Positions 3 through 63,998 of a stretch of DNA of 64,000 nucleotides are shown here, piece after piece (position 1 is the stretch's first letter; every line of letters starts with the position of its first letter). Location: assembly GCA_030650425.1 (NCBI GenBank), contig JAUSED010000005.1, positions 78,932 to 142,931 of the forward strand. The letters are read 5' to 3'. The translations under genes were made by a program, and so were the position numbers. The notes beneath the pieces are model-generated. The model saw only the letters and a list, made by a program, of their open reading frames with translations, ran no database searches and was not told where the DNA came from. Source of the stretch: Candidatus Omnitrophota bacterium (lineage in GTDB: Bacteria; Omnitrophota; Gorgyraeia; Gygaellales; Profunditerraquicolaceae).

Positions 3-290
3 GTAAAGGATGATGGCAAAGGGATTAACAAGGAGAAGATTATTAAGCGCGCGGAAGAGTTGGGATTCATCAAAAAAGGCCAAAGGCTTAGCGAGCAGCA
101 AATCCTTAACTTAATATTTCTGCCTGAGGTAAGCGAAGCAAAAGACAGCCGGGAAGGAACGGGAATAGGCTTGGCTACTATTAAGAAGAGCATTGAGGCT
201 GTATGCGGCCAGATAAACGTAAAGAGTAAGACAGGGCAAGGAACCCAATTTAGCTTTAGCCTGCCTTGCGGAGTAGAGCCAGATAAGCTG
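3..290 (+). other. C-terminal part of a histidine-kinase-type ATPase (HATPase_c/GHKL) domain
   Basis: The translation ...DDGKGI...EGTGIGLATIKKSIEAVCGQINVKSKTGQGTQFSFSLP matches the G1/G2 boxes and the C-terminal sheet of sensor kinase ATPase domains. Confidence 0.55.
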
Positions 291-48200: not shown

Positions 48201-51200
48201 ATATCAGAAATGACTATTTCTAATTACCTGCGCAGGATTCAGGCATTATTGCAGTTAGAAAAAAAGCCGCTCATTAAGATAGAACTAAAAATAAAGAGAA
48301 GGACAATAGCGGATCAGATAGAGGAATGGGCTTTAAATAGGGAGCCCAGCCAAAAACTCAAAGAATGGGGAATAAAAGAATTAGCTGCCTTGTTTGGAAA
48401 AACTCCCCACAGCATAAGGCAGGCGCTTCCCGCGATTAATAAAAGATTAACTGAACGAAACGAAGAGGAAGTAAGAGCAAATAAAAAAGAAGAGTCAGCT
48501 GAAGGCTATAAAAAAATAGCCCCAGCAGATGGCTTAGAGTTGTTTATACGAGAGGTTTTTAGGAAGATGGGTAAAGATGAGCAGCGGGTCTTTAATTACG
48601 ACTTTGAGGGTGGTAATGATATATTTAAGGGAACAGGATTAACCCTGAAGCGAGTTGAGTCATTAATAAGAAGCAGTGTTGTCAAGATTTGTAATGCGTT
48701 TGGAACGCAAGACGAAAAGGCAGCTTATGAAAGATATCTGGATTTCAAGAAGCAATTGAATGCAAGCCACAATAAAGAAAGCTTAATAGAAGAATTTAGG
48801 GTTGGTGAGAGCGTTGAGAAAGAGGCAGAGGAAAGAGATGTAGATGATTCTGAAGCATATTCTCAGGTTCAAGATAATTCCATTGATGTAGAGAACCAAG
48901 AGGCCGCCAAGCATATAAAACGCCCATCCTCCTCGCCGATTCATAACAGTGAGCAAAACCCAGAGGAAGGCTTAAGGCGGATCTCTGGAAAGGCAGAGTT
49001 TACAGAAAAGATAAAACCATATCTTGAGGTGGGGGCAATGTATATTTTGTTTATAGCGGCTTGGATAGTTTTTGGCATTATAGGAAAAGTGCTGGATATT
49101 ATTAAGCCGTTTCTATCTAAGTTAATAGGATTCTTACAGCAAAAAACTTCAAGCAGAAGGAAAGATTCTAAGATACATAAACATATGGGAAAAGGGGATA
49201 TTTCTAAGTTAGGGAAAGAAAATGGTGCCGCTTCGCCGCTGACGCGAAATATAGAAAGAGCCAACGCAATATTTAACAGAGTTCTTGAGGCAGCCAGTAG
49301 GAATTCAAAAAGAAAGTATGCTATTAAGCTCTTCATTAAAGAAATAGACGCATACGGTAGGGCTTCTTTAAGCGGCAATTATATTACAATAAATCCAAAC
49401 CAGTTAGGTAATCCAGATTTTGAATTAGCTAAATTAATGGGCCATGAGATTACCCATATAACCTTGGGGCATATTTGGATTGTACGCATTGGATTCAGGG
49501 TCACAACCGCATTATTTTCAATCCTGTTTGCCGCAATGATAAGCGGGATTATTACTGAATTTGACGCGCTTCTTATTGCCGTGGTATTTTTAGGTACGGT
49601 GTTGATGTGTTACTTGGTTACTCAAAGCGAAGCCGATAAGAAAGGTAAGCAATATGCGATATTAGCCGGATTTGGAAATGATACAAAACCTTCGGCTTCT
49701 AAAAAAGCCAGTCATTCCGGCTCGCCGGTAGAAATCATTAGATATGATGAAGTCGATAAGAATGGGGTATTATTTAACCGTTTTCGGTTAATCTATGGAA
49801 CTAATAACCAGCCGCAAAAGCGAATTGTAGAGGTAAGGCAAAAAGGTTTTGAGCCGGTATCTATGTTGAATTATACCTCGCGTAAGATTCACGATACATT
49901 CCCATATGCAGCTGAAGGGCTCTCTCAAGAATTTAGCTGGCATGGCGAAAAAATGCTGGGTGATATGCCGCATACTACCACTCAAAGCGCGCTGTTAGCT
50001 TTAGAGAGGATTAATATTACAGGGAAAACCGTGATTGACGCTGGAACCGGTGATGGAGTATTAGCTATTATGATGGCAAAGCAAAAAAGTGAAGTTAAAG
50101 CTGCGGATTTTCCTTGGATGTTAGAGTTAGCCAAGGAGAACGCAAGATTAAATGGCGTCTATGATTCTATAGAATTTATCGCAGCTACTTTTCAAGATTT
50201 TGGACGAAATTACACAGGGCCGGTAGATATTTTGGTAACTAACATTGGGCGCATGGGAAGTTATCAGAGATACGAGTCTCTATCTAATTTATTCAAGCGA
50301 GCGCAAATTATTATTTTGGCCGGCAGTGAAATGAGGCCTTATGCTCCGTATGCGGATGTTAATCATCCATTTCATCCCTACGACGGGTATCCCTTCTTTA
50401 AAGGAGATAAGTTTATTCCTCTACTCAAAGTAATAGTCAGAACAAAATATTCAAGCGCTGAATGGGCGGCATTGGTTCTTGCCGCCGCCTCGCCGGTCAG
50501 TCAGTTAAATCAGAAAGGCTTAAATTGGAAAGAATTTTTAGGCAGGGTAAAAGAAGCGCGGGTGATTTTGGTAAAAAATGATCTTCATTCTCCCTCAGGC
50601 GAAGCTCCTTGGATATTATCACCAACTGAGCAAGATAAAAAGGTATTCGCAGGAAATTACAACAAAGTTACAGAATTATTAAGGAACCTTCGTATCCTCG
50701 AAGCCCTTGAATTAGATACACCGGATCCGCACAACGATGTATTAGATGATGAAGGGTTTTTAAAGCTGATTGGGGCATTTATGGCTGGCGCCTCTAGCCC
50801 ATTGCGAAACAAACCCGCCGCCTCGGCCGCAGGTATTCCTAATAAAATAATAACCAGAAAGAGATTCGAAGATTGCCTAAGAATAAAGAATTGGGTTAAT
50901 CTTAAAGGCGGGTATAAGAAAGTTTGGTATCCGGGTTCCGGTTCTGATGTGGCGTTGGCCCTGTATGCTACTAATGGAGATGAATTTACCCTTACAAATT
51001 ATACACTCTTTGGAGAAGCGGATGATTTTAGCAACTTTGAGGGTTGGGAGAGGGAATATCATTATCATTTAAGATGCACCCACAGTTGGCTTAGCGTTAA
51101 TTACTATAGATGGAATAGTATAAGCGCGCAGATTTTCTCTGAATTAGAAGCGATAGGGGTAAATTTTGATGATGTATTAAAGACAAGGATTAATCCTGCG

Positions 51201-54200
51201 AGATTTAGACTGGAATTTGATTGGCAGCATCCTTCTGAGAAGATAGCCAAAACAAGGATTATTGACTATATAACTCCGGGCTGCGACTTTTATACTCCGG
51301 AAAACAAGGCAGATATCATAATTATCAAGGCGTTAGATCAATTTCACATTAACCCGCAGGACATGCTTTCTTTCTTAAATCAAAATGGATTTATAGTTAG
51401 CGATATTTATCTGGAGATCCTAGGAATCAGGCCCGTTGCCTTGAAGCTCAGCCATAAATTTGGATACGCCCATAACTTGCCATTCGGAGAATTAGTTGGA
51501 TTAACTACGGGTACGGATGTATTTTTATACAGGAAAATTTCCGCAGCCACTATTTTTAATGGCCCCTCGCGGATAAGTTCACCTATTAATCGCCAAGGGC
51601 AGGCCCCTCAAGATGAAGGCCTTAATAAACAGATTGAGGCGTTAATCAAGATAGTAGGGACAGGGGACGTCAGGGCATCTATTAAGTTATTCGAGATAGC
51701 AGAAGCAGGAAATTTAGGCCGTGGCTTTGTTACTGAGATTTTTGCCCTTCTGAAAGACGAACGTAGGTCTGCGCGAACCGATGCCGCGGTAGTGCTGCAG
51801 GTTGCAGCCTGCAAAGACATTGAAACAATGCTTGAACTTATTGAGCGGACAATAAATGACGAATCGTTAGCGGATGAACGCTACGATACGCATGGCCGTA
51901 TGACTTGGCCTCAGCGCCTTACCGTAAACATCATTAATGAAAGAAAAGGCCAATACATTTTGGAATCTTTAGAATCATTAAGAGGTAATTCTTTACAAAA
52001 GGATATGGTTATAGATTTTATCTTGGATTATGGCAAGTATATAAACGGCTTCTTTAACTTTGCGATCTTGCTCCTCGATAATAAATTATTAAATGATAAA
52101 CAAATCAACAAGATTATCTATGATGTATTTGGCGCGCCTGTTTCACTAAGTAGAATTCGTAAGGCAGCCATTTTTAGTCAACCTCAAGAAATTCTTCCGA
52201 AAGAATTAGGCCTAAAGATACAGACAGATTCTAAAGTAATTATCCTGTCCGGATGCAATTATCCGTTACTAAGGACAGAGGCTCTGATAGAGGATTTAAG
52301 ACACACATACCACTTCGACAGCCGGGTTTCATTTACGGAATGGCCCGTAGAGGAAACGCCCTTTGGCTACGCATTGGATGCCTATAACTTTTTGAAAGAG
52401 CGCTCTCAAGAAATACCTTCGCTTGGAAAGATGCTGAGAGCGATGGAAAGTCGCTCAGGAGAGATTATCGAGGCTTATAAAGAGGAGCTTTATAAGCCAT
52501 ATCCGAATTGGTATTATCTATTAAAAGAGCTCAATGAGATTATGCATCAGGTCCCTTATGACGCAAAATTACTTTTAGGCATCCTTGATTCTTATGCGAG
52601 AGAGATTTTCCATGAAGCTAATTGGATTAAAACATCGCAAGAGAGCATTCCCGGCACCTATATTATATCTTTATATGGAGGGTTATCTGCGCATGACACA
52701 CCTTGGATTTGCGCGGGAGAGGATTTATCAAGCCTTTTAGGCCGGATATTAAAGGAAAATCAGATTGATTGGCGCGCGGAAGAAGACAAGAGCTTAGCAG
52801 GCCTTAGAAACTATGCATACATTGTATTGCCGCTTTCATTAGTAGGCAGCGGTAACGAGGATTTACTGAAGGCCATAATCGGCATATACTTTTTACCAGA
52901 GATCGGTTCTCTTCGCAAGCCAATGCATTCGCTAAACTTAGAGTATGTGATTTCCCACACTGATTCCTCCAGAAGATTTAGCATCGATTTAAAGAAAATC
53001 ATAGATTCTTTACTAAGTACCTTTCCCAAGAACCTTTCTTCGCCGATTACTCTTGCCTGCGGTAAACCGTTGCAGCTAAATCCCGCCGCCTCGCCGCTGG
53101 CTGATAAAAAAAATCAAGATGAATTCAGGATGTTTGAATTTATGGATTTGTTAAGCCAGGATTTAAATCAACATTCCGCTGAGTTAGAGAAAAATAGCCC
53201 TAAGGTTGCGGTGTTTTGTTCTGCCAGGATTAATTCCGGAAAATATTGGGAACTGGCAAAGGCCTTAGGGGCTTCGCTAGAATCTTCCGGTTATACTATA
53301 ATTACCGGAGCTGGCCCGGGTTTGATGGAGGCGGTTGGCGAGGGCGCAGGCCAAACTATTGGGCTGAATATTAATATGCCGAATAAACAAATTCCTAATT
53401 TTTACGTAAAGGAGTGTTTAGAATTTCACAATTTCTCAATAAGAAAGGCTATATTTATCAAATACGCTGATGCCTTTGTAATCATTCCCGGAGGATTAGG
53501 AACTTTAGATGAGCTTCTTGAGGCCTTAACCTTAAAAGACAGGGGATATATCGATGCCCCAATCATTTTATTAGATAAAGGATTTTATTCAGGTTTATTT
53601 GAATTTCTAGAGGGAGTCGAACAGGCTGGTTTTTTGAGAAAGCCCCTTAAAGAATTATGCGTCCTTGTTGATTCTGTAGATGAAGTTTTGCGATATCTTA
53701 AACTAAATAAGGCGCCTCTCAAGCAGGGGAAAAATAATATAGATATTAAACAGGTTTTGGATAATCTCAAGGAGTCATTGGCCGAACTGCAAGGCATAGA
53801 ATCAGCGGTTGGTATTCTGGGCTCGCATTCGTTTGGGAAAGACTCTTCCTCTTATAGGCAGGCATATAATTTAGCCAGGGGTTTTTCCAGAGGTGGCAGA
53901 AAAATACTTTATAGGGGCTGTCAGGGGATTACCGAAGCAGTTGACAAGGCCATTGAAGCAGAAAAAGGCGTGGGTATATCTTTTTGGGTCCCGGATTATG
54001 AAAAAATTCAGCCGGTTATAGGTAAACGATTGGTTTCTCTGCACAGGTTCGCGCAGAAGATTCTTTTGATAACGCATAGCAGGCTTGGGCTTATTTTCTT
54101 TGCCGGAGGAATTGGCACGCTCGATATATTATCCGATGCTTTATGTTTGATTCAAAATAAAAAGATACAGGCAATGCCTATTGTATTAGTGAATAGAGAG

Positions 54201-57200
54201 TTTTGGCAGCCTTTGGTTAGCTGGCTGGAAACTATTTTGAAATCAGGGGCAATATCCAAGGAGGATATTGAATTAGTTAATCTTGTTAGTACAAATGAAG
54301 AGATAATGAAGATTATCGCCGCATCTTCGGTTTTAGGCGAGCAAGCGCGGGATTCGAGCGAATATCGTTTAAGTTCGCCTGTGAACGAATCCTGCGTAGG
54401 CCAACCCTTAGACAGACCCTCTCAAATTAGTAATGTAGACACTTTACACAACTCATCGCCTGTCAAGCAATTAGGAAAGAAAATGCTTCTGCGGTTAGAT
54501 ACCGATAAAAAGTATTCGAGCTCTCCGGCAATAATAGAAGAGATAGCCGCGGCAATTACAGATTCGCTCAAGCTGACTGATTACTCTGGTTCGCCGTTGT
54601 TCTCCTATACTTTCTGTTTCCCTGCCACAATACGTGGCGGAAGCTCGTCTATGTCCGTTTCACCTGTAACTTATGTAGCCTTGGTGGTTTTATATTCATC
54701 TACCTCGTTTTTGATAACAGAAGGAGCAGGATTATTAGTAAACCAGCTTTTTCTAATTCCGCAAATTATTTGCGCTCCGCCAATAGTAAAATATGCAACT
54801 AAGCCCGTTTCCTCGCCGGTAGGGGCTGTTGGCTTCAGCTCGCCGGTGGAAAAAACAGTTGGAGCGACGGTGGTGACGCGAGGCGCCGCCTCGCCGCTTG
54901 GTGAATGGTCAAGTGATAATCTTAGGCAGCAACTTAAGCAGATTGAAGGGAATGTTTTGAATTTGCTGAAGAAATATTCTTTGCCAGAGTTTACGGATAT
55001 TGTTTTACATCCTGTCGCGTATCGTTCTTTAATCACGTGGTTAAACGCAGTCATCAAAAGCCGTGAAGATATACAAGATTTCAAAAAAATGCTGCAGAGA
55101 ATGGAAAAAGACTTTCTGGGGAGTATTTCCGGATTTGTTGCTATAATTTCTCCTGAAGAAAGAAAATCTTTAGTAGAATCTTTAGAATCCTTTAAGCGGA
55201 AGGCAAACGATAAGTTAAATGGTTTTATTACTGAAGCAAGAGAGCTGTATGGAAGGTTTTTGAAGTTGACGCAGCGGGATTTAGAAAATCGTTTTCCGGG
55301 AGAAACTACTCTTATTCTCTTACGGATAATGAGGACAGAGCCTATTAACCGTGAGTGGAATAGGGTTAGGGAAAATGAACATTTCACTTTAGATCCGTAT
55401 CATGGCTATACAAAATTAGACTGGAGAGTGATTATTGTTGCGCAAGTGCCTTTCGGGAGAATCAAAACAACCCCATGGGTATTGGAATCAAGTAAGACTG
55501 AAGAAGAATTTATTGTTTCCGGAGGCCTTCTAAACGTTGTCCAAACCTTTGATAAAAAAGATAAATGGATTAAGTGGAGAGAAGCAAACAAGGATTATTT
55601 TTATGCCAAGCTAAACTCGGCTTCTTCGCCAATCCTAGAAAATAATCAAAGTCTTCTCGTAGCTGGACGAAGTCCTATCAAATTTATTGGCTTAAGCTTG
55701 CCTGTGGAGGGAAAGCTTAAAGAGGTTTTCCTCTATGATAAGCTAGAAGAGAAACTGGTGCCGGTAGAGGCCAAAATCCTTGATACTCAGGACCCTGAAT
55801 TCAACGGTTTTCAGGATGCTGTAAGGGAGTGGTTAGCCTATTCTAGGGATGGTTATGCTATTGATAAAGCTAAAGACCCTCTAACCGGAGAAATTATTAC
55901 TATTCCTCATATCCGTCCTCTTGCCAGCCAAATTATCCAGAATGGAATCACTACTAAAGAGCACTTTATCGTTTTTAAGACAGCCGAGCAGGGAATTATT
56001 GCCTTTGTTCGCCTAAAGTTAAGGCCGCGCAGTATCCTTGGTGCCGGGTTTATTGTTTCTCCGGTTATCCGGCAAGTTAAACGTTACGATACGGAAACTC
56101 TCTTAATGGCCGTGATTCAGTCAATCATCGAATTTAGCCTTCAACAATTGGGCAGGGTAAGGGTGTGGGCGGATCCAGCTAACCGAAAGATGCTGGATTA
56201 TATTTTGCTATTTGGGCCGATAAGAAGACAAGGAAAATTCCTGGTAACGGACGAGGCCGCGCGAAGAATTCTGTGGTACATCCGTAAAAAGATGGCAGAT
56301 TATACCGCAACTTTAGCTGAGCCGGAAGAGAAAAAGTTGGATGGTTCTATTTCCGGCGCCTCCTCGCCGCTGGATTTAACGGTTGGCTTAAGTATTATCA
56401 TCTCCTATGCCTTATTAGTTCCGGTATTTGATTTATACCTGCGTAGGACTATTCAGCGTAAGACCATAGAAGAATTTAAGAAATTCCCATATCCTGTTTG
56501 GATTATGACATTCGCTTTTCTATTATTAGCATGGAAATTCCCGCCGTTGCACAATATTATTTTTTACCTCACCGCATTTTGTCCCGGCATTTTCCTTTCT
56601 TTGATAACGACACTTTCTTTGGCGACTATTTTTAGCCACCGAAAGACCAAGAAAATCATTATACCTTATTATTTATTGCGGGAAGAAGTGAATTATATGT
56701 GGAGACTATATGTCGTTAATATGAAGATTATTGAAGCCGTTGATATCTTTTTCTCAGCTGTGGCAGTCGCCTTCTTTAGTTATTATACCCATGCAACAGC
56801 TTATTTCATACTAGTAATGCTTCTAAAAAGAGCCGGAGTTCTATATCTAGCCCGAGGGCTCACTAAGGAATTTTCTTTAGAGCTTGAAGAGAGATACGAT
56901 GGGGGCAGGGACTTTATAAAAAAGTTTATCACAACAGAGCAGTTATTAGGAACAGATATTGCGCTTAGAGCAAAGGGGGAGCATAAGATAAGCTATAATT
57001 GCCCGCGGCCAATAGCTTTTGCGTTTAGTTATAAAGGATTAGTTCTGTATTTAGAGGAACCGTATCTTGCTTATTATTTATACCCTTGGTTTATGCCTGT
57101 AGTCAGAGTGATTCAAGAGATCTCCGGCTGGAGAAAGGCAAGAGACCGCGCGAAAGATTCTCTTCCGCAAAGCGAAGCAGCTTGCGGCGGATTAATTCCG

Positions 57201-60200
57201 CAGCGTATTGAGTATAGAGATGGGGCCGCCTTGCCGCCGGGATCGCATATCGTCGTCTACGAGGAGAATGGGAATGTAGACGTTGTATATAGCCCATTGT
57301 TTAACAAAGGGTTACAAAACAAATCTTTAGGATATCAAGATGGCCCCGCCGCCGGCACTGAGCCTAATCGAAGCGCCTCGCCGGTTTCAGGAGAGACAGA
57401 ATTATCTTCGGCTTCCGCATGCCTTAGCCCCGCTAAATCCCGCGATAGCCCTAAGGGGAATAAATTCTTAACCTTAACTTCTGCTTTTCTTATTTTTCTT
57501 ACCTCCTTCCATCTTTACCTTAGTCCTTTGCGGGCCTATGCTAACCTTAAGGTTAATCTAAGCGTAATCACGCCCCAAGCGTCACAAGAGCGCCAAGAAA
57601 CCGAAGAGCTTTATAATCAGGCAAGCAGGCATCTAAAGAATCAAAAATACCAAGAAGCGCTGGATCTGTATATAAAGTTAATTAAGCTAGCGCCCAATTA
57701 TATAGATGCCTACATTGACAGGGCCTATCTTTATATCCACCTTGCTCAAGAAGCAAAACAAACAGGTAAAGATACAAAAGGCCTTAGGAAGAACAGAGAC
57801 AATGCAATGTTGGATTTAAAGAAGGCTGAGGCGCTTACTTTAAAGGCCATAAAAGAGAAATACTTTACTAAAGAAGAAGGCAATTTGGTATTTGCCTCAA
57901 TCTATAATCACTACGGATTATTTTATTATCACCTTGAAGGTGATTACAAGAAAGCAGTTAGTTATTTTGAGCAGGCCATAGGCTTAGAGCCGGATAACCC
58001 GATAAATCATAATGATTTAGGGGGAGCCTATTTTAAGTTAGGTAAATACGGCCTTGCCGAAGAGGCATATACTAAGGCAATTGATAAAGCAAAAGCCGCC
58101 AAAGACAATTACGCGGGTTCCCGCATTTACGCAAACCGCGCATTCTTAAGGTTTAAACTCGATAGATATAAGGCGGCAAAGCAAGACATACAGGAAGCCA
58201 CTAGTTTAAATCCCAATTTAAAGAATGATAATAATATCCAAAATTTATTAAAGGAGATTGAATTGAAACTTCAAGAGCGAGAAGGGGTTATTGATTTGTC
58301 TTATCTAAAACTCAATAACTCCAATATCCTTCAGCAGGCTTCCTCGCCGGTTTCGGAGAATAGAAGGGGACAGTTCTATCGTAACTGTTCATCGGCTATG
58401 GAGATAGACAGAGACGGTCTGGAGGATTCTAAGGAAGCGCTTATCGCGCCTTTGCAACATCCCTTAGGCAGGCATTTATATATAGGTACTGATGAGGAGC
58501 GAGACTTATCTAAATGCAGGCAATTGTTATTTGCAGCTTGTCTTGAACTTAGGATATGGAAGAAGCGATATTATTTTGAGCAAGTTGAAAACAGGATATG
58601 CAAGGATCCTTCGTTTCGGACAAAAATAGGCCTTATTGTCTTATTGCGCGATATCCTGCTTAATTATGACGCTTCTAACGTAACGGTTGCTTTTGTAGAC
58701 AGGCTTGAGGGTATTCCGGAAGAACTGATATCGTTCCTTTTAGATGACGAGATCTTATCAGCTTATTTGAATTATCAAGATGAACTTCGAAAATATAAAT
58801 ACATGGATGATAGGGCTATCGAAACTGGCTTTTTCCCATTTTATTATCTATGGTCAGCGTATAAACGCGGGGAAATGCGTGATGCCAAAGAACTCAAAGA
58901 GAGAGTTGTTAGCATCCTTAAGGGTTTTGGCTATGATAAAGCATTCTTCAAGCTCCTAAATGACTTAGCGCATAAGAAAAAGGCGGATTTTAGCCTTGAT
59001 AGCGGCGCAGACGAATTGCGGGTTTTCTTTAGGGCCTTATCCCGTAAAGATATCGTTGAGATTTTTAGACAGACCTTATCAACTCAGATTCTGCCTTCTG
59101 TTAAAAGGCATAGAGCTTCATCTGTAATACAAGGTACCGCCTCGCCGCTGAAGGAAATTGGATCAGAAACCCAAAGAGAAGCAGCCAGGGGAATGATGGT
59201 CATTGAATTGCCCGTGGATGCCGACTTGGGCGAGATCATAAATCACAAAATTGTATATGTTAAGAATGACGGGAATATTAGCACGATTAATGAAGGAAAT
59301 ACAATTAAACTACTACATCCTGATGGGCTAGAATGGAATCTTAGCTGCAAGGTAAGGGATTATCTAAGAGCTACATTTAGCTTAGATTACTCTCTCCTAG
59401 GATTAAAACCTCATCCCTCAACACTTGGAGCGATATGGGCAATGGAAAGGTATCCTACCAATAATCAGCAAGTCCTTGACGCGGGTTGCGGTGAAGGGGT
59501 TTTCACGATTTTGGCGGCTAATTTAGGAGCGAGTAAGGTTATAGGCGTTGATTTAAAAGATTTCATTATTGGACTCGCAAGAAGAAATGCTGAATTAAAT
59601 CGCTTAACTCATATTATTGAATATCACAAACAGGATTTCACAAAACCGTTACAACTATCTGTAAATAACATCAAGTTTGACAAGATCATAACTAATATAC
59701 CCTGTGGTTATACTTATATGGTTCCATCTTTATTGAGGCTTTATCCGGAAGTCAAAACCTTTATTTGGGCAGGTGATTACGTTCATCAAGAAGGCCGCGA
59801 GTATATCGTGGAGGGATCAGAAGAATATATTAGGGAGATTCAGGCATTAGGATTTCGATTCGTAGAAAAATTGATTATTCCTCAAAGAGGTTTGTTTTAT
59901 CCAGAAATTATTATTTGGAAGTGGGTGACATATATCTTAAAGCGGGAAATTAACGAAGCAGGCGCCGCCTCGCCGCTGGGGAAAAATGATCAAAATATCC
60001 TTATCCCTGAAATTATTTCTGAAGCTATTGCAGAAGAAGTTCAAAGAATGCCGGCTTGGGAACTTTTATCTGTTTTAGATCTCAAAAAGGCCAAGCTACT
60101 TTTTACTAAAAGCGGTCCTAGAGAGCTTACTGTCCACAAGATTAAAGTGCCAAAGCTTGTAAATAAGTATAAAGCGCCAGAGGGTTTAAGTATTCTGCCG

Positions 60201-63200
60201 TATGAACTTTTTGATACGACAGAATTTGAACTTTTATACAATAAAAAAGGATACCTTATCGCGATTTATCCGGTTCTCCCAAACGGATTCCTGATTAAAT
60301 CTGGCGAACGACTCCCTCACTATTTTGATTTTAGTGAATATTATTTTAAAATTCCGGAATTCGGTGATCCGAAAATGATTGAAAAATGGGATGCCTTCGT
60401 AAAGGATGTCGGCAGAGATCGGGAAGCAATACAGGCTTATGAGGATTTAATCGGGATAAAGGGTAAGCTTGAAAGGCGCCCGCGTTGGGTACCTTACATC
60501 TACGCAAATCTTGATTATCGGGATAATTTTCCATTTGCTCGGGCTTTTTACATTGAGATGTTTAGCCGTTTGATTAAAAAAGATGAAATCTCGAATAAAA
60601 TCTCTAGAGACATAATCCGGTCTATTCTTCCTGTTTTTCCGACTGTTTACCATCCGGGATCCCATTTATTGGATGATTGGAAATACATTTTAGCTGTTAC
60701 CAGGCGTCTTGATATCCAAAAAGACCATGATATTTTGGTTGTTGGCCCGGGGAATGGCCTTGACACTTGGTTTGTTTCTCGGCAAACAAGGCGGAAAATT
60801 TATGTTGCGGGAATTAATCCTTTGGAAGTTGCCAATACCAGGGCTGTCGCAAAAATTGCCGGGTTTAAGATAGAAGCCAGGATTTACGACAACATTATTT
60901 CTAAAGACGGCGTGACTGTCTTTAATAAGAGATTTGATCGGATTATCTGGAATATGCCCACATATTATCCGGTTGCCCCTAGAATCCGGGAAAGCCTTGA
61001 AGAATGGGAAGATAATGATTACGACGGTATGATCTTAAGGCGTTTTGCCGGAGGCCTTCCATTACTTCTTAAACCAAATGGAATTGCTTTGGTTTGGAAT
61101 TCCGCTGCCGGAAAACTTTTAGATGAGGTTGAAGAAATCTTAAAAGCAAGAGGAGCGCTAGATGTGGCAGTCGAAAAATACCCGGGTATGACGTATTTAG
61201 CCAATATCGAAATGGGCACGGAAACCATTCCTACCGCGCTTTACTTTATCCGCAAGGGAAAAAATCCGGATGCAGCAAGCGCCTATTGTGTCAGTTCGCC
61301 GCTGAAAGAAATAGTTGGAGCGACGGTGGTGACGCGAGGCGCCGCCTCGCCGGTTTCGGGGGGAATATTCCTAACTATATTATGGCCTAAAGACGGTAAT
61401 ATCTTTAATGCGCTCAAAATCTCTGTCATTAGTAGCGATATTCCTAATCTTGCGGATTCTCATAAGAGCAAGATTGAGGGCATCGTTTGTCAACAAGCCG
61501 GATTGCTTAATGATCAATTGGGCAGTATCAAAGACACTTTCATTCAGCGGCCATATCTTGATGTTCAGTTTAGGGATACTATTTATGGCTATATGACACT
61601 TACTGAGTTCTTTGGTTATTTGCGGATGGGATTTAAGGTAGGAGACAGCTTTATGGGAGGATATATTGTAGATTTCTATGGTTTCGGCAATCATAAGACG
61701 ATGCAGAAGCTCAGCGACTACAATAACAGAAGTATAAGCAATTATTTCTTTTTGCTCGCAGCGCTGAAGAAAATTGGTGGCGTTATCATTGATGCCCAGA
61801 AAGTGGTATATAAATATATTGGAGTCAACGAAGATTTTTTTACCGGATTTGACTTTGGCGAGCATCTAATTATTCAAAGGGCTAAAGTTAGGGGATTCAG
61901 CAAGTATCTTAGCAATGCCGCGTTTAATATGTATGATAGCGCGAGTAACTTCAGTGGTGGTTTTAGGCAACTCAAACCTTATTTCTATCCTCTGATGTTC
62001 GGCAAGGGGAACCTTGGAGAGCGGGCGAATGACCCCTCGTTCATAAATTCCCAGTATAGTCTTAGTCATATTTTTTCTCCTTCTAAAAAAGTATACCACG
62101 CTCTTAACGGGGTTGTCAAGAATATTAGTCTTGCCGCCTCGCCGATAAGGATCTCTCCATTTCTCAGTGACATATTTAGAATGTTTCATATGTTTGAGGT
62201 AAATGAATCTATTTTAAGCGAAGACGGGAAAGAGGCGCAGCAGTGGGTTAAGAAAATCATTGGCACAATGCAGAGGCCCCCTGTCGGCCTTATTACAAAT
62301 AATAATGCAGAAAAGCTCATAGCGCTTATGCCTAATCCACGGAAAATATCTCTCGGTGGTTGGTTTGATCTTAGCAGCCTCAATTTTGGAAGCGATGATG
62401 AATTTGGCTTTGGTTGTTTAAGGCCTTGCCCGCATTGTTCAGAAGGGAATACAAGAGCGCGGGTAACAAATCGCACGCTGCCGCCTGCAATAAAGCTTAT
62501 TGAAGAGATGCGCAAGGAAGGCCAGCAAGATACGTTAAGAGGCCTGAAAACTTATCCCGGAAGGTTTCTGATCCAAGGGTGGAATAACACCGACCTTTTC
62601 TATTGGTGTGATCCTTTCTTTAGAGTCTATTTAGACGGCCTTATTGAATTTATCGCGCGTCATTACAAAGATAGAAAATTCCGCCTGCGGATAGCCACAA
62701 TCGGCCCAAACATAGATGACTGGCGCGCATTTATCGTAGCAAAGAGTATTGACAATCTGGTGCTTCAATATCCTGAGTTAAGAAATAATATATTTAGTCT
62801 ATCCTTGCATTTGGCCTTATTTAGCACCAGAGGGTTTGATTATAATACTATCTCTGCTTTGTATGAGCGCAAGATAAATCCACAGCGGCTGGCTAAGGTT
62901 ATAGATAACTATGTGGCCCGCTACGCAGCTATTATTGGCGTTCTCAAGAATACGCTAAGAACGGTCAAAGTATTTCTGTCAAATGAAAGCAGTGAATTTG
63001 ACTCTCTTACGCTTACTGTATTAGATAGGGTCTTAGAGAGGGTCAATATCAGTGGTGGCTTAAAACAGAAGATTATTGATGGAGTAGCTGCAAGAGAACT
63101 AAACAGTGATGTAATGACCCCGTACGGCTTTACTGTAAAAAGCGCTAACATTACGCCATCCGGCCACCGGGGGTTTGATTTTGTAATTGGGTTATTCAAG

Positions 63201-63998
63201 CTTGCAGGCAGATGGAAAGAAGCTGAACGTTACAAGAGGGCTCAAGCAGTAATGAACTTCGCTCCATACCGCAGTAATTATGTCCCAGAAGATGGGTACC
63301 CTCAAACCATAATTTTACCGGGAGAAAGAATTATTGTTCAAAACGAGAAAAGAGAAATGTTTAAATTACCTCTGCAACAACTCGATCCTGATGCTGAATT
63401 TCTTGCCCGCTACGGACTACCTGACAAAAAATCTATAACTAAATATTTATCTTCAAGCCCATTGGCCGAAGTCGCCGCCTCGCCGGTGATAAACAGGCAA
63501 TCCATAACTTATGAAGAATTTGCCGATGATAAACTAGTCAGATTATTACAAAGCGCATCAGAAGAAGAAGTATGGGAGGGCATAATTCAATCCTTAGAAA
63601 AGCCAAGTCTCACTAAGAAAGAGGTGTCGGTAATTTTTGAGAATATTGTAAAGATATGTTATATGGAATATGGATATTACAGGTTCTCCGGTTTTTACTC
63701 TAAGGAGAAATTCCGCGAATTTTTTAAGAGGCTATTAGCATTTAAAGAGGAAATAACCGAAAGGATATTTGTAAATGAAGAAATTAAAATTCTATTCAGG
63801 AAAAGAATTGAAATTCTGAACAAAGTTTTAGATCTATCTGCGGCCGTTCCTTATGAGGTAATTCACTACCAAAGAGAGGATAGGATCATTCCTAAAGACA
63901 CCGATGGTTATTCTTTACCTTTAGCATTTTTAAGAATAATAGCTTTGACTATTTACGATACGTTGAAGGTTAATTTGACAAATAAGGTGGTTGCTATG
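3..63998 (+). CDS. Giant uninterrupted ORF, partial at both ends (21,332 codons in window), encoding a multi-module signalling/regulatory mega-protein
   Basis: The frame with codon starts divisible by 3 has no stop codon in the window. The ORF track lists ATG-to-stop ORFs in the other five frames but none in this one, as expected if it is never closed. Recognisable protein motifs occur in this frame from the first to the last kb, and the terminal 2 nt are left over as expected. The true gene is therefore longer than 64 kb. Confidence 0.85.
3030..3500 (+). other. Degenerate HD-like domain (RelA-type, HD dyad replaced by HK)
   Basis: ETYFHHALAAAKTL...AAFLHKL aligns to EPYIxHPLxVA...ALLHDV of RSH hydrolase domains but lacks the Asp of the HD dyad. 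It lies immediately upstream of the synthetase domain. Confidence 0.3.
3675..4060 (+). other. RelA/SpoT-type (p)ppGpp synthetase (nucleotidyltransferase) domain
   Basis: SRVKSAYGMFEKI...FEALKDILGTHIIS...KGYEAIHIDVEI...PYEIVIFS matches RPKHIYSIYRKM...FDVRAVRIV...GYQSIHTVV...VEVQIRT of RelA/SpoT synthetase domains. Confidence 0.55.
5607..6030 (+). other. HD domain of the SpoT/Mesh1 (p)ppGpp-hydrolase type with an intact HD dyad
   Basis: YELARQIHRGKKRDNGEPYLMHPIAVV...ALIDHDVFEE...LMKMADKLHSLKT matches AHxGQxRxSGEPYIxHPLxVA...LLHDVVED...KLADRLHNMRT. Confidence 0.65.
7311..7410 (+). mobile_element. MITE/REP-like nested palindromic element inserted in frame (copy 1)
   Basis: A perfect 11-bp inverted repeat gtcattgcgag (7329-7339) / ctcgcaatgac (7390-7400) encloses a perfect 27-nt palindrome, cgaagcaatctcg a cgagattgcttcg (7352-7378). 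The encoded peptide is R/C-rich (PIVSLRANEVSEAISTRLLRRCAPRND), unlike the flanking protein. A related copy lies 0.8 kb downstream. Confidence 0.55.
8114..8222 (+). mobile_element. MITE/REP-like nested palindromic element inserted in frame (copy 2, about 70% similar to copy 1)
   Basis: Outer perfect 11-bp terminal inverted repeat gttgcgaaatg (8114-8124) / catttcgcaac (8212-8222). Inner repeats cgtcatcctgag (8133-8144) / ctcagaatgacg (8190-8201) and cgaaggatctcg (8150-8161) / cgagattcttcg (8169-8180). Same architecture as copy 1: GTCAT..GAGCGAAGCGAAG.AATCTCG...CGAGATT.TTCG...CTCAGAATGAC. The encoded peptide is FRHPERSEGSRYRRDSSAFGLRMTQ. Confidence 0.55.
10970..11340 (+). other. Domain of unknown function, copy A of an internally duplicated module
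   Basis: PKLSLGLPMVIKSFHNLDEIRYLQEMAGNFELQFCVVSPKRTPYPLLIFSKEL...RFVPFA is clearly homologous to 31540-31870 (LELGLLMATKPFLNLREVRNIQELAGDFELQFTVIFPKGARHPLVVFSREL...RFVPFA). Both copies are followed by HTH domains. Confidence 0.5.
11440..11620 (+). other. LuxR/GerE-type HTH DNA-binding domain
   Basis: TDRELEIWRLWAKGVDREAIGKALNEGERFIKRVISKIITKFNISKRGQIAHF matches the LuxR C-terminal pattern LTxRExEVLxLxAxGxSNKEIAxxL.ISxxTVKxHxxNIxxKLxVxNRxxA. Confidence 0.5.
11925..12060 (+). other. Second LuxR-type HTH
   Basis: LSEREKKILWLFIAGYNPKAIALTLSLPEGILLSDILFAMKQKL. Confidence 0.4.
16560..17440 (+). other. TPR repeat tract followed by a TM helix (17455-17520)
   Basis: Repeated motifs such as W..LG..YY..GD...A...Y..A and A.Y.LG.I.F.QGK.DEA; then LPMLFVGLVLFIIAGISAG. 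Confidence 0.5.
18703..18747 (+). repeat. 17-bp near-perfect inverted repeat (hairpin) within coding sequence
   Basis: ggacacaatccttaatt (18703-18719) is complementary to aattaagtattgtgtcc (18731-18747) with one mismatch. It is followed by the tandem cctggaattc ctggaattc. Confidence 0.5.
18785..19150 (+). other. CheD-like (chemoreceptor glutamine deamidase family) domain
   Basis: GGRFVGCTACLFWDNNAGIHGFLHLFP resembles the CheD signature LGSCVAVCLYD...GGMNHFMLP. Confidence 0.3.
20100..20400 (+). other. Possible GNAT acetyltransferase fold
   Basis: IQEESLYGKGYVNEILFWI resembles the acetyl-CoA-binding motif A (Q/RxxGxG/A). Similar weak GNAT-like segments occur at 18200-18500 and 38390-38770 (RHNGYGIKIFRTAIKAL). 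Confidence 0.25.
20545..21040 (+). other. GGDEF diguanylate cyclase domain (GGEEF active-site motif)
   Basis: DLLTGAYNRRYLDE...[26 protein letters not shown]...FRYGGEEFCVI...VTVSIGV...ADQALYKAKENGRNRV contains all the GGDEF hallmarks. Confidence 0.8.
22290..22830 (+). other. Protein-kinase-like fold (atypical)
   Basis: FADSKPENVIIHH resembles the catalytic loop HRDLKPENILL, and the downstream IDMDN sits in the DFG position as in atypical or aminoglycoside-type kinases. Confidence 0.3.
24780..25240 (+). other. TPR repeat tract
   Basis: LNDFGAICLDQGRYSLARILFEVGL...HFQLGYVSYLLGEFNLAFAYFQTAKRLG...LGDFDNALKEFQEMMQAG. Confidence 0.5.
27500..27620 (+). other. HExxH zinc-metallopeptidase-like motif (HEYVH at 27526-27540)
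   Basis: VVRIIIHEYVHYYSFYSP...AEVFAETIVEMIY. This is a minimal gluzincin/ImmA-like signature, weak on its own. Confidence 0.25.
29220..29960 (+). other. Sigma-70 family module (region 2 and region 4-like)
   Basis: GLIKKIIASYKVT...LEDAAIFGAKIAALKYHPERGVKFMTFAWNVIKHEI matches region 2 (LVxSIAKRY...[37 protein letters not shown]). The C-terminal segment ...DQFGFSIVAKQRGIKRQTVTKAYYLVLATLR resembles region 4. Confidence 0.55.
30229..30480 (+). other. Low-molecular-weight phosphotyrosine phosphatase/ArsC-like domain (CxGNxxRS P-loop)
   Basis: GGIKVVFLCNGNRWRSAAMYLW matches the LMW-PTP P-loop V(L/C)FVCxGNxCRS. Confidence 0.4.
31540..31870 (+). other. Domain of unknown function, copy B of the duplicated module (see 10970-11340)
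   Basis: See copy A. It is followed immediately by the XRE HTH array. Confidence 0.5.
31995..33105 (+). repeat. Tandem array of about seven XRE/Cro-C1-type HTH units (about 160 nt each), two of them near-duplicate
   Basis: Units such as LRQIREKMGLSQKELVNRLGFLNLSAITFYEIGTVKMPLDFLNRI. LLQELRESLGYTPAKLAKVIGYTEVDILHWENAEAWIPSGVLRDIRKRVMPERLRQIREKM (32150-32340) is paralogous to LLKALREFLGYRAEKLARELGKGYTEEGILRWEEGKEWIPRGVLKEIRERLIPLRLRQIRKEV (32640-32810). Confidence 0.6.
33645..34200 (+). repeat. Three tandem repeats (about 60 aa / 185 nt each) of an uncharacterised W...GFL.W..AVKA.G..P motif
   Basis: WPLELFLSQLKTASKILGTNSSTAFLRKYRKIRRAFLFLREKGFLSDWNSAVKATGGQPAFR / WTKEIFLKQLKNAIKESGTSASWVIKDKYRKIYRAYLLYGIEWGFLNWASAVKACGAKPHLR / IIKTRKIFLYRLRQVFADLGTTSSREIKKRYPQLFISFIFCQEEWGYLDWSSAVRKTGNQPIS. 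Confidence 0.6.
35330..35900 (+). other. TPR repeat tract
   Basis: AEQLLNDGQYAEAIKLFKQVV...AKAYFISGKEHYLRGNYRRAINYFRKVLDV. Confidence 0.45.
36040..36700 (+). other. Second sigma-70-like module (region 2-like plus region 4-like HTH) ending at a junction motif
   Basis: HLWLVKLAAIRYL resembles LRLVVSIAKRYL, and FQGLSMEFITRRTELNEKEINQYLKQGGQEIQSL is an r4-like HTH. It is paralogous to 33370-33560 (LALNHEDMDNIIRLTGLTQEEIDRHLIEGGEKIQKISGL). Both end in xSSPV / SASPV. Confidence 0.35.
38865..38876 (+). repeat. Junction motif GCCGCCTCGCCG, exact copy, in phase (AASP)
   Basis: Exact 12-mer. Context PAASPVLGK. Confidence 0.9.
40960..41530 (+). other. Cluster of about 5-6 predicted transmembrane helices
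   Basis: Long hydrophobic runs such as WLSIFPAALFWAGYYLF, VIILASIALIGLTTIVF, IVGTTAVMRAIMVGSRTFLFSGIYFFSMIIFSALCSVFIL and FLVFMGAFFISDIVAMF. Further TM clusters lie at about 15440-15540, 19350-19500, 19770-19850, 38960-39070, 49020-49130, 49490-49620, 54640-54790, 56370-56860 and 57460-57540. Confidence 0.5.
41823..41834 (+). repeat. Junction motif GCCGCCTCGCCG, exact copy, in phase
   Basis: Context PAASPLAEE. Confidence 0.9.
43565..44400 (+). other. Radical SAM core domain (CX3CX2C plus GGEP)
   Basis: IITSKCNLQCAPCIAQ gives CNLQCAPC = CX3CX2C, and FVGGEPSLYG is the SAM-binding GGE motif downstream. Confidence 0.5.
46283..46980 (+). other. Calcineurin-like (PPP-family) metallophosphoesterase fold, partly degenerate metal ligands
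   Basis: VLVIPDIHCQY...IQIGDVISRGPE...RLLGSHELL...VVHAGV follows the DxH(x)nGDxxDRG(x)nGNHE pattern, with D to S in GDxxD and N to S in GNHE. Confidence 0.45.
48150..48440 (+). other. Two helix-turn-helix motifs
   Basis: WESQRRLAEEIGISEMTISNYLRRI and LKEWGIKELAALFGKTPHSIRQALPAINKRL. Confidence 0.4.
49310..49660 (+). other. M48/HtpX-like membrane zinc metallopeptidase module (HEITH at 49444-49458) with flanking TM helices
   Basis: GNYITINPNQLGNPDFELAKLMGHEITHITLGH resembles the M48 core (...ITvttGLL..L..dELegVlaHElgHi). Hydrophobic helices lie both upstream (49020-49130) and downstream (49490-49620). Confidence 0.45.
49990..50300 (+). other. Class I SAM-dependent methyltransferase fold
   Basis: GKTVIDAGTGDGVLAIMMAK (motif I, VLDxGxGxG), ...VDILVTNIG. 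Confidence 0.45.
50484..50495 (+). repeat. Junction motif GCCGCCTCGCCG, exact copy, in phase
   Basis: Context AAASPVSQ. Confidence 0.9.
53085..53096 (+). repeat. Junction motif GCCGCCTCGCCG, exact copy, in phase
   Basis: Context PAASPLAD. Confidence 0.9.
53205..53650 (+). other. LOG-family (lysine-decarboxylase-like / nucleotide phosphoribohydrolase) domain
   Basis: VAVFCSAR...YTIITGAGPGLMEAVGEGA...KADAFVIIPGGLGTLDELLEALTL...PIILLD matches the LOG signatures GGGxGLMGA and PGGxGTxEEL. Confidence 0.65.
53800..54290 (+). other. Second LOG/DprA-like Rossmann domain, more diverged
   Basis: AVGILGSHSF...ILYRGCQGITEAVDKA...LIFFAGGIGTLDILSDALCL...PIVLVN. Confidence 0.35.
54857..54896 (+). repeat. 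40-nt perfect direct repeat, copy 1 (contains a junction motif; encodes VGATVVTRGAASP)
   Basis: agttggagcgacggtggtgacgcgaggcgccgcctcgccg is identical to 61313-61352 and in the same codon phase. The flanks match for about 8 more nt with 2 mismatches. Confidence 0.9.
56370..56860 (+). other. Cluster of about 6 predicted transmembrane helices
   Basis: LSIIISYALLVPVF, VWIMTFAFLLLAW, IIFYLTAFCPGIFLSLITTLSLATIF, VDIFFSAVAVAFFSYY and AYFILVMLL. Confidence 0.45.
57580..58240 (+). other. TPR repeat tract (about 6 repeats)
   Basis: ELYNQASRHLKNQKYQEALDLYIKLIKLAPNYIDAYIDRAYLY...GLFYYHLEGDYKKAVSYFEQAIGLEPDNPINHNDLGGAYFKLGKYGLAEEAYTKAI...ANRAFLRFKLDRYKAAKQDIQEATSLNPN. Confidence 0.6.
59440..59730 (+). 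other. Class I SAM-dependent methyltransferase fold
   Basis: QVLDAGCGEGVFTILAANLGASKVIGVD (motif I) ...FDKIITNIP (motif IV-like). Confidence 0.45.
59963..59974 (+). repeat. Junction motif GCCGCCTCGCCG, exact copy but out of phase with the ORF (read as APPRR)
   Basis: 59963 is not divisible by 3. The ORF frame reads ...KQAPPRRWGKMIKISF..., whereas the +1 frame would read EAGAASPLGKNDQNIL before hitting TGA at 60008. Confidence 0.8.
60700..61130 (+). other. Class I SAM-dependent methyltransferase fold
   Basis: HDILVVGPGNGLDTWFVSRQTRRKIYVAGINP...FDRIIWNMPTYYP...LKPNGIALVW. Confidence 0.45.
61313..61352 (+). repeat. 40-nt perfect direct repeat, copy 2 (immediately upstream of the antisense toxin cassette)
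   Basis: Identical to 54857-54896. Confidence 0.9.
61380..61865 (-). CDS. vapC: PIN-domain ribonuclease toxin (VapC-like), encoded antisense within the giant ORF and in codon registry with it
   Basis: The 161-aa translation has the PIN hallmarks IFVDSNIFIYHF (N-terminal Asp), TSVIVVAELLHRL (Glu), LLTNDALNLALM (Asp) and C-terminal IATNDRDFERI (Asp). Its start ATG (61863-61865) abuts the TAG stop of the upstream small ORF. It ends at the TAA complementary to the plus-strand TTA at 61380-61382. Confidence 0.75.
   Translation of the reverse strand: MLAKVKSGKKIFVDSNIFIYHFLGINDNATNFLQRCEQKEIIAYTSVIVVAELLHRLMIAETIEIYNISSHKAVSYLKSHPQITKELSKCHIAINSIPKLNIKIWPLNESVFDTAQLIIKQSGLLTNDALNLALMRIRKIRNIATNDRDFERIKDITVFRP
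61866..62069 (-). CDS. vapB: Antitoxin of the DUF104 type that commonly pairs with PIN toxins; start taken at the internal Met preceded by a Shine-Dalgarno
   Basis: MTKTILGIYERGVIRPLSKVPLAEHQRIEIRFELP... matches the MxxxIxAIYENGVLKPLEPLDLPEGTEVRV antitoxin signature. AAGGAG lies 7 nt upstream of this ATG on the minus strand. The track ORF (61866-62189) extends further 5' but without an SD. Confidence 0.7.
   Translation of the reverse strand: MTKTILGIYERGVIRPLSKVPLAEHQRIEIRFELPKTTTEVTRAIIHIKRGIAKILAESPNFSPLNN
62077..62119 (-). promoter_or_regulatory. Sigma-70-type promoter plus Shine-Dalgarno for the antisense TA operon
   Basis: The minus strand reads TTGACA (62119-62114) - 18 nt - TATACT (62095-62090) - tttttag - AAGGAG (62082-62077) - aaaaaat - ATG (62069-62067). 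Confidence 0.6.
62133..62144 (+). repeat. Junction motif GCCGCCTCGCCG, exact copy, in phase (immediately beyond the antisense cassette promoter)
   Basis: Context LAASPIRI. Confidence 0.9.
62400..63200 (+). other. Second CX3CX2C motif (possible radical-SAM-like module)
   Basis: GFGCLRPCPHCSEG gives CLRPCPHC = CX3CX2C at 62415-62438. The domain extent is uncertain. Confidence 0.3.
63474..63485 (+). repeat. Junction motif GCCGCCTCGCCG, exact copy, in phase
   Basis: Context VAASPVIN. Confidence 0.9.

Follow-up and report, generated by a model that had tools for sequence, protein, structure and literature searches.

A probable toxin–antitoxin operon with its own promoter, nested antisense within a giant Omnitrophota reading frame

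Is a near-consensus promoter that points backwards inside an unbroken reading frame the start of a genuine operon, or an accident of sequence? The question is raised by a 64,000-nucleotide (nt) stretch of a Candidatus Omnitrophota bacterium (contig JAUSED010000005.1; hereafter the window), in which a preliminary description had pointed to a promoter and Shine-Dalgarno (SD) sequence on the minus strand, ahead of an embedded antitoxin gene. From the analysis reported here, the motif is likely to be the working sigma-70-type promoter and ribosome-binding site of a bicistronic type II toxin–antitoxin (TA) operon, composed of an AF2212/COG2880-like antitoxin and a VapC-like PIN toxin, that lies antisense in a giant open reading frame (ORF). 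Promoter and TA family are of known kinds; new are the arrangement, its conservation and the selection for end-to-end translatability that it implies.

Read on the minus strand, the promoter-to-start region is cTTGACAaccccgttaagagcgtggTATACTtttttagAAGGAGaaaaaatATGactaag, which resolves into cTTGACA-accccgttaagagcgtgg-TATACT-tttttag-AAGGAG-aaaaaat-ATG (Table 1). The spacer between the -35 and -10 hexamers measures 18 nt, and its final bases, TGg, make the -10 element an extended one; 20 nt separate the end of the -10 from the antitoxin ATG. A consensus scan of 58-64 kb ranked this promoter first (11/12 hexamer matches plus the TG), and the earlier wording, according to which a near-consensus TTGACA-N18-TATACT is followed by AAGGAG-N7-ATG, proved accurate to the base. 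Sites with at least 10/12 matches occur 12 times on the minus strand across all 64 kb, or about once per 5 kb, and a single promoter-like site of such quality could still be chance. It is the position before a Pfam-supported antitoxin gene, together with conservation in related cassettes, that makes this promoter more than a chance occurrence.

The two genes downstream have separate family support. The predicted antitoxin matches Pfam PF01954 (E 1.3e-8; 35.6 bits, cut-off 21.6) and the PDB entry 2NWT (AF_2212; E 6.6e-5), and PF01954 is also matched by its counterparts in four of the related loci, to which we refer by L numbers (L001, L003, L005 and L163). Its stop codon TAG ends at 61866 and the toxin ATG begins at 61865, the two directly abutting. 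The toxin scores above the gathering threshold of PF01850 (E 3.2e-15) and has 44 homologs in the database, at identities of up to 75%; the PIN acidic residues D14, E52, D128 and D149 are invariant, and D147 is kept in at least 90% of the sequences. While a PDB sequence search with the toxin returned nothing, a fold search succeeded: the AlphaFold (AF2) model, with a pLDDT of 94.9, found Rickettsia VapC2 (3zvk), Shigella VapC (5ecw) and M. tuberculosis VapC20 (5wzf) as top Foldseek matches in the PDB. COG2880/DUF104 (AF2212) and PIN proteins were predicted as a TA pair with an AbrB-like antitoxin by Makarova et al. 2009 (PMC2701414), and the same antitoxin-toxin pair is called as genes on L001, L163 and L164. 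From promoter to toxin stop, the whole unit spans ~740 nt. As exact proteins, the toxin and antitoxin of the window are absent from a gene-call collection of 153 billion positions, in which the source genome may be missing.

Upstream DNA was at hand for eight loci (the window, L001, L003, L004, L005, L006, L163 and L164), and each of them carries a promoter of 9-11/12 plus an SD at the same position. The -10 element ends 20-41 nt before the antitoxin ATG. TTGAC is retained in 7/8 cassettes, the exception being L003 with TGGACA, while a TA...T hexamer at a spacer of 16-18 nt and an AGGAG or GAGGTG 6-9 nt before the ATG are present in all eight. Nucleotide similarity between the cassettes reaches neither beyond the SD nor past the toxin stop, and the flanks cannot be aligned; with the flanking bases randomised in this way, the hexamers stand out as a conserved footprint. 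By background alone, a 70-nt interval is expected to contain ~0.013 sites of at least 10/12, and the five observed in the eight loci are not chance. The statement that the motif sits where a TA operon promoter belongs was thus borne out, both by the Pfam-supported start 20 nt downstream in the window and by the equivalent placement in 7/7 other cassettes. Likewise, the view that the cassette is an expressed unit and not a chance antisense ORF gains support at the sequence level from the Pfam scores, the PIN acidic residues, the VapC-like fold, the codon-position divergence (see below) and the recurrence of the -35/-10/SD arrangement in 8/8 diverged cassettes.

What, then, surrounds this unit? 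The plus frame whose codons start at positions divisible by 3 has zero stops in 64,000 nt, compared with hundreds in each of the other frames, and therefore the window lies inside a single ORF. In calling the antitoxin embedded, the preliminary description was right about the embedding and understated the context, as the host is a stop-free ORF across the whole window. The last 6,300 aa of the giant ORF alone hold LOG/SLOG, PrmA-type methyltransferase, TPR, M48 peptidase and metallophosphoesterase domains (Pfam), and the host seems to fit a giant ORF of the Omnitrophota multi-enzyme class.

Since the TA codons share their triplets with codons of the giant gene on the opposite strand (codon-aligned antisense), any TTA, CTA or TCA in the TA genes would read as a stop in the host frame. 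None of these is used among 22 Leu and 14 Ser codons of the TA genes, whereas the giant gene uses them for 42% of its Leu and 14% of its Ser; by our own arithmetic, the chance probability of such avoidance is ~1e-6. The giant gene would tolerate the cassette because ribosomes read through it as a 260-codon spacer; such read-through depends entirely on the absence of TTA, CTA and TCA from the TA genes. The plus-strand read-through segment has no Pfam match. Among six aligned cassettes, the first, second and third codon positions of the TA frame diverge by 0.25-0.43, 0.17-0.27 and 0.53-0.63, respectively, and amino-acid identity is 53-67% in the TA frame versus 25-39% in the host frame. This codon-position pattern and the higher identity in the TA frame indicate that the TA proteins are under ordinary purifying selection. 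The host frame across the cassette, in turn, appears constrained only to stay open, with almost no amino-acid constraint, and both reading frames appear to be maintained by selection. Within the window, the cassette is the strongest outlier for antisense coding signal as judged by composition.

Every one of the 12 standard-code ORFs in the window that reach 120 aa or more lies on the minus strand, and G+C skew is positive across the whole window. The longest minus-strand ORF (54671-55387, 238 aa, GTG start) spans a linker and has no Pfam match; at E <= 0.01, none was obtained for any of 30 minus-strand ORFs of 77 aa or more apart from the TA genes. We rejected the idea that the codon-aligned antisense frame is the most open of the minus frames of the window, given its 1,194 stops versus 802 in another minus frame. 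Most long minus-strand ORFs sit in this 802-stop frame, in which third codon positions coincide, unlike the codon-aligned frame of the TA genes.

The arrangement recurs. DNA was available for ten toxins of the embedded clade, the window included; in 10/10 the toxin gene has zero antisense stops, and in 9/10 the whole fetched sequence (0.9-64 kb) is antisense-open. A scan of one genome per species yielded the four closest toxin genes (53-59% identity), which define L003 to L006. These loci derive from Omnitrophota-type metagenome-assembled genomes (MAGs) and one single-cell genome; L003 and L005 are labelled Omnitrophica/Omnitrophota, as are the nearest giant-protein fragments (P0045 and P0046), and L004 and L006 bear the label of Planctomycetales MAGs. 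Each of the four loci was fetched with 13.7-20.5 kb of sequence, throughout which the codon-aligned antisense frame has no stop; in L003 and L005, real enzyme domains are encoded on the giant strand. Antisense frames that are open from end to end were also seen in the short contigs L001, L163, L164 and L165, whose toxins are closer or similar. Among 147 non-embedded homologs used as controls, by comparison, the median is 4 antisense stops in the toxin gene, and none of the 89 controls with a G+C of <=0.50 is stop-free (minimum 1, median 7). A metagenome scan contributed toxin homologs to the control set, at most 46% identical among the matches listed, and no further embedded cases among these. 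Neighbour joining of 160 toxins placed the 14 sequences of embedded type in a clade that holds no others; within it, toxins have diverged to ~52% identity and synonymous sites are saturated. Sequences flanking the other embedded cassettes show no relationship to those of the window. Judged by these sequences, the TA lineage is a distinct clade living inside giant ORFs of several genomes, at non-homologous positions. When the read-through polypeptide was compared with 1.84 billion representatives, four short matches were the only ones obtained, and a 5.8-billion-protein database gave none; the giant proteins are seemingly not represented in these two sets.

One contig, L002 (ENA ERZ5996431, 957 nt), is the only one of the embedded clade whose antisense frame closes: it is open for 843 nt, with stops at 844, 916 and 952. 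On the TA strand, a G+C-rich PCMT-like gene overlaps the toxin end, and coverage is 1.26. L002 could cover the end of a giant gene, hold a free-standing cassette or be a chimera that arose at low coverage.

A second, unrelated TA pair, with a DUF433 antitoxin and a DUF5615/PIN_10-like toxin, is likewise nested antisense in the giant ORFs of L003 and L004, no more than ~1 kb from the AF2212-PIN cassette. Each of the two pairs has its own promoter-like site and SD; the side of the first cassette on which the pair lies differs between L003 and L004. The DUF5615 toxin lies outside the codon-aligned frame, yet the host frame is open.

How the cassette is seated in the giant gene can be read from the linkers around it. 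Two exact 12-mers, GCCGCCTCGCCG, flank the slot as a direct repeat 792 nt (264 codons) apart. We considered a target-site duplication and rejected it, the 12-mer being an ordinary linker with nine exact copies in the window. The wider motif [AGS][AS]SP[LVIM] has 42 sites in the giant protein, from 1050 to 63474, at domain-sized intervals (e.g. 38865, 41823, 50484, 53085, 54885, 59964, 61341, 62133 and 63474). AASP was observed 13 times and SSSP 18 times, where 0.29 and 0.24, respectively, would be expected; at 26/42 sites, the Ser-Pro of the linker is coded TCG-CCG, even though TCG accounts for 12% of Ser codons, less than any other. The linkers also delimit the stretches that are homologous to other giant proteins; they are candidate recombination junctions or candidate proteolytic cleavage points of giant proteins. 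For the 1,332 aa around the cassette, 14/14 homologs match giant aa 19988-20433 only, and P0045 (69% identity) and P0046 (63%) continue into other modules and have no TA slot. With homology bounded by linkers and flanks unrelated, the TA unit behaves as another shuffling module of the mosaic gene, apparently with the one orientation and codon choice that do not break the host frame.

Several details of the slots may be added. A longer linker, VGATVVTRGAASP, occurs twice in the window, at ~54885 and 61341 (regions 54820-54900 and 61280-61352); a similar sequence, VGAVVGTRLG, precedes the L003 cassette in a region that is repeated within L003 (5922-5949 and 6108-6135). The module after the cassette (62145-63470, plus strand) has no Pfam match at E 0.01; it includes a CxxxCxxC motif (CLRPCPHC) of the kind found in radical-SAM enzymes, and a comparable module, with CLKMCSHC, lies further downstream in P0046. 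The L005 cassette lies between direct host duplications (9611-9727 and 10514-10630; 117 nt, 91% identical) that encode a hydrophobic helix plus KKILRQEGA, and the L006 cassette between more diverged duplications of ~140 nt (9404-9542 and 10718-10871). These duplications are private, being found only twice in 20 kb, and the spacings of 903, 1314 and 1329 nt are multiples of three. Besides, the promoter-to-start region gave a sub-threshold Rfam match to freshwater-2 RNA (62067-62133, minus strand; 23.6 bits versus a gathering score of 49.9). We rejected this identity, as the match rests on the U-run, the SD and the AUG only, the central hairpins are lacking and related loci do not have it.

Table 1. 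Positions of the features discussed, in window coordinates (last row: coordinates of the related loci L004 and L003).
Feature	Position	Strand	Basis or remark
-35 hexamer TTGACA	62119-62114	minus	minus-strand read and consensus scan
Extended -10 TGgTATACT	62098-62090	minus	hexamer TATACT 62095-62090; TG at 62098-62097
Shine-Dalgarno AAGGAG	62082-62077	minus	7-nt gap before ATG
Antitoxin start ATG	62069-62067	minus	
Antitoxin gene, 67 aa, AF2212-like (DUF104/COG2880)	61866..62069	minus	PF01954
Toxin gene, 161 aa, VapC-like PIN-domain nuclease	61380..61865	minus	PF01850
Giant ORF (21,332 codons or more), unclosed at either end of the window	3..63998	plus	zero stops in frame
Read-through segment of giant ORF, 260 codons, no stop	61353..62132	plus	reverse complement of promoter, antitoxin and toxin
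Linker 12-mer GCCGCCTCGCCG (Ala-Ala-Ser-Pro)	61341..61352	plus	upstream side of slot in giant-gene direction
Linker 12-mer GCCGCCTCGCCG	62133..62144	plus	downstream side of slot in giant-gene direction; 13 nt from -35
Neighbouring AASP-bounded module	59964..61340	plus	homologous to Omnitrophota giant-protein fragments
Second TA pair DUF433-DUF5615	L004 11426-12017; L003 4257-4848	TA strand	DUF433 E 4e-20; toxin E 2e-13 and 2e-17

On this basis, a mechanism can be proposed. RNA polymerase would start near 62083 and transcribe against the direction of the giant gene; both proteins would arise by coupled translation (TAG then ATG), and the antitoxin would neutralise the PIN toxin. Loss or silencing of the cassette would free the more stable toxin and lead to cell arrest. 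As the freed toxin would penalise loss, the cassette would resist deletion, and this resistance would shield the cassette and, probably, the repeat-punctuated giant gene around it, in analogy to the TA cassettes of superintegron arrays. There, TA systems stabilise the array and have been proposed to guard it from deletion (PMC7167474). We favour, with modest confidence, the wider reading that the VapC/AF2212 lineage and the DUF433-DUF5615 pairs are specialised for antisense life in Omnitrophota giant genes, retaining promoters of their own and losing all codons that would close the host frame, that giant ORFs are selected to be translatable end to end, and that the cassettes may guard against deletion collapse.

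Several observations weigh against a working, self-regulated and host-protecting operon of this kind. The 18-nt spacer exceeds the optimum by one base, and a start near 62083 would leave a leader of only ~14 nt. No intrinsic terminator was found after the toxin gene. Operator palindromes bound by the antitoxin, which the preliminary description had envisaged, did not emerge: the eight promoters have no inverted repeat in common, and only L006 carries a perfect 14-bp palindrome, located in the promoter spacer. With no conserved operator palindrome, autoregulation is unsupported. In the literature, we found no data on transcription, toxicity or neutralisation for any AF2212-PIN pair. Several of the supporting loci are contigs of ~1 kb, for which the giant ORF is extrapolated from the open frame. 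We recovered no allele of this giant gene that lacks the cassette, and insertion is deduced from the mosaic structure only. Finally, the stabilising role for the giant gene, which we consider probable, draws on analogy, and a purely selfish lodger would explain the same facts.

This last alternative is a real, if second, possibility. Promoter and TA genes would be functional and bring no benefit to the giant gene, the cassette persisting through its own addiction; only the rare insertions that are antisense, in frame and stop-free would spare the host gene and hence survive. Non-homologous positions, unrelated flanks and an exclusive toxin clade would all be accounted for, as would the nearest relatives of the neighbouring module that have no cassette and the second TA family nested alongside. 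TA systems are, moreover, generally viewed as selfish mobile modules (PMC2701414; PMC7167474). The long persistence of the lineage, evident from ~52% identity and saturated synonymous sites, would however fit a benefit to the host as well, and sequence alone does not separate selfishness from stabilisation.

Unlikely, in our view, is a primarily regulatory role, in which antisense transcription tunes or processes the giant transcript through polymerase collision or cleavage of an RNA duplex and the TA proteins are secondary. The promoter does fire head-on into a gene of >64 kb, antisense RNA may run on beyond the toxin gene in the absence of a terminator, and the processing of giant transcripts is still an open question (West-Roberts et al. 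2023). Yet only one such promoter was found in 64 kb, at a single locus, and a function at the RNA level needs neither SD nor ATG nor two conserved ORFs. Even less credit is due to a relic or chance origin, with a fortuitous promoter-like motif next to silent TA ORFs that the giant ORF has engulfed and that are decaying. One site of 11/12 may indeed arise at random, given the ~12 sites of at least 10/12 per 64 kb of minus strand; however, both ORFs are intact in ten diverged loci and bear the codon-position signature of purifying selection, and promoter and SD are in place in 8/8 loci amid randomised bases, against the expectation of ~0.013 per 70 nt given above. Least probable of all is a plus-strand polypeptide across the cassette as the real product, a giant-protein domain with the TA-like ORFs as by-product: although the plus frame is open in every locus and BLASTP finds similarity between the segments (E 1e-18 to 1e-51), such similarity is expected from antisense translation of a conserved gene (25-39% versus 53-67% identity), variation peaks at the first codon position of the plus frame, and it is the minus-strand ORFs, not the plus-strand segment, that match two independent Pfam families known as partners. 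The regulatory role, the relic and the plus-strand domain each appear to be contradicted by the pattern of selection.

The nested operon with its likely promoter offers an unusually clean case in which two old, homology-supported bacterial genes are fully nested antisense and selection can be measured on both strands. It bears on whether giant genes are read as one unit, as it is hard to explain why 260 codons devoid of amino-acid constraint should be kept stop-free unless ribosomes must pass through them. By analogy with superintegron TA cassettes, it points to a way in which mosaics of 60-400 kb, for all their repeated linkers, may escape deletion. It also shows what annotation may overlook: once the giant coding sequence is accepted, a gene caller may discard nested TA genes, whose relatives are called on ~1-kb contigs covering just a short part of the open frame.

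How does the locus compare with known systems? Like the Omnitrophota giant genes of the multi-enzyme class (West-Roberts et al. 2023, bioRxiv 10.1101/2023.11.21.568195; 2026 preprint 10.64898/2026.06.07.730766), the host is stop-free over >21,000 codons, tiled with unrelated enzyme domains and unique in sequence outside single modules. Its linker punctuation and TA slot, in contrast, have no counterpart in these two reports, neither of which mentions antisense nested genes or TA systems inside giant ORFs, and a literature text search found no nested antisense TA systems.

With VapBC-type operons, and specifically with the predicted COG2880-PIN pair, the cassette shares an antitoxin gene that comes first, a toxin start that abuts the antitoxin stop, a sigma-70 promoter and SD of its own, a toxin with PIN fold, acidic residues and VapC proteins as best structural matches, and an antitoxin that matches PF01954 and 2NWT. 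It differs in being wholly inside an opposite-strand gene, codon-aligned and with constrained codon choice, instead of occupying an intergenic region or island, and in having no operator among the eight promoters compared. Besides, its toxin is longer than the ~130-140 aa of the VapC toxins it matched.

The TA cassettes of chromosomal (super)integron arrays offer a functional parallel, each being a small, self-promoted TA unit among unrelated modules in a repeat-punctuated array. The likeness is functional only, though, since the array of the window is one continuous reading frame and not a set of separate cassettes with attC sites; no attC site or integrase was noticed, though no search aimed at them was made. 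Moreover, its repeats are in-frame linker codons, and its TA unit must be antisense and free of host-frame stops.

Finally, embedded antisense overlapping genes are represented by the E. coli candidates (bioRxiv 10.1101/2020.11.18.388249), in which a protein-coding ORF likewise lies entirely within an opposite-strand gene. Most of them are short and young and have no homologs, whereas the nested genes of the window belong to two old, widespread families, were probably imported and not overprinted, and keep their arrangement across deeply diverged genomes. Here, it is the host frame, and not the nested one, that has almost no amino-acid constraint.

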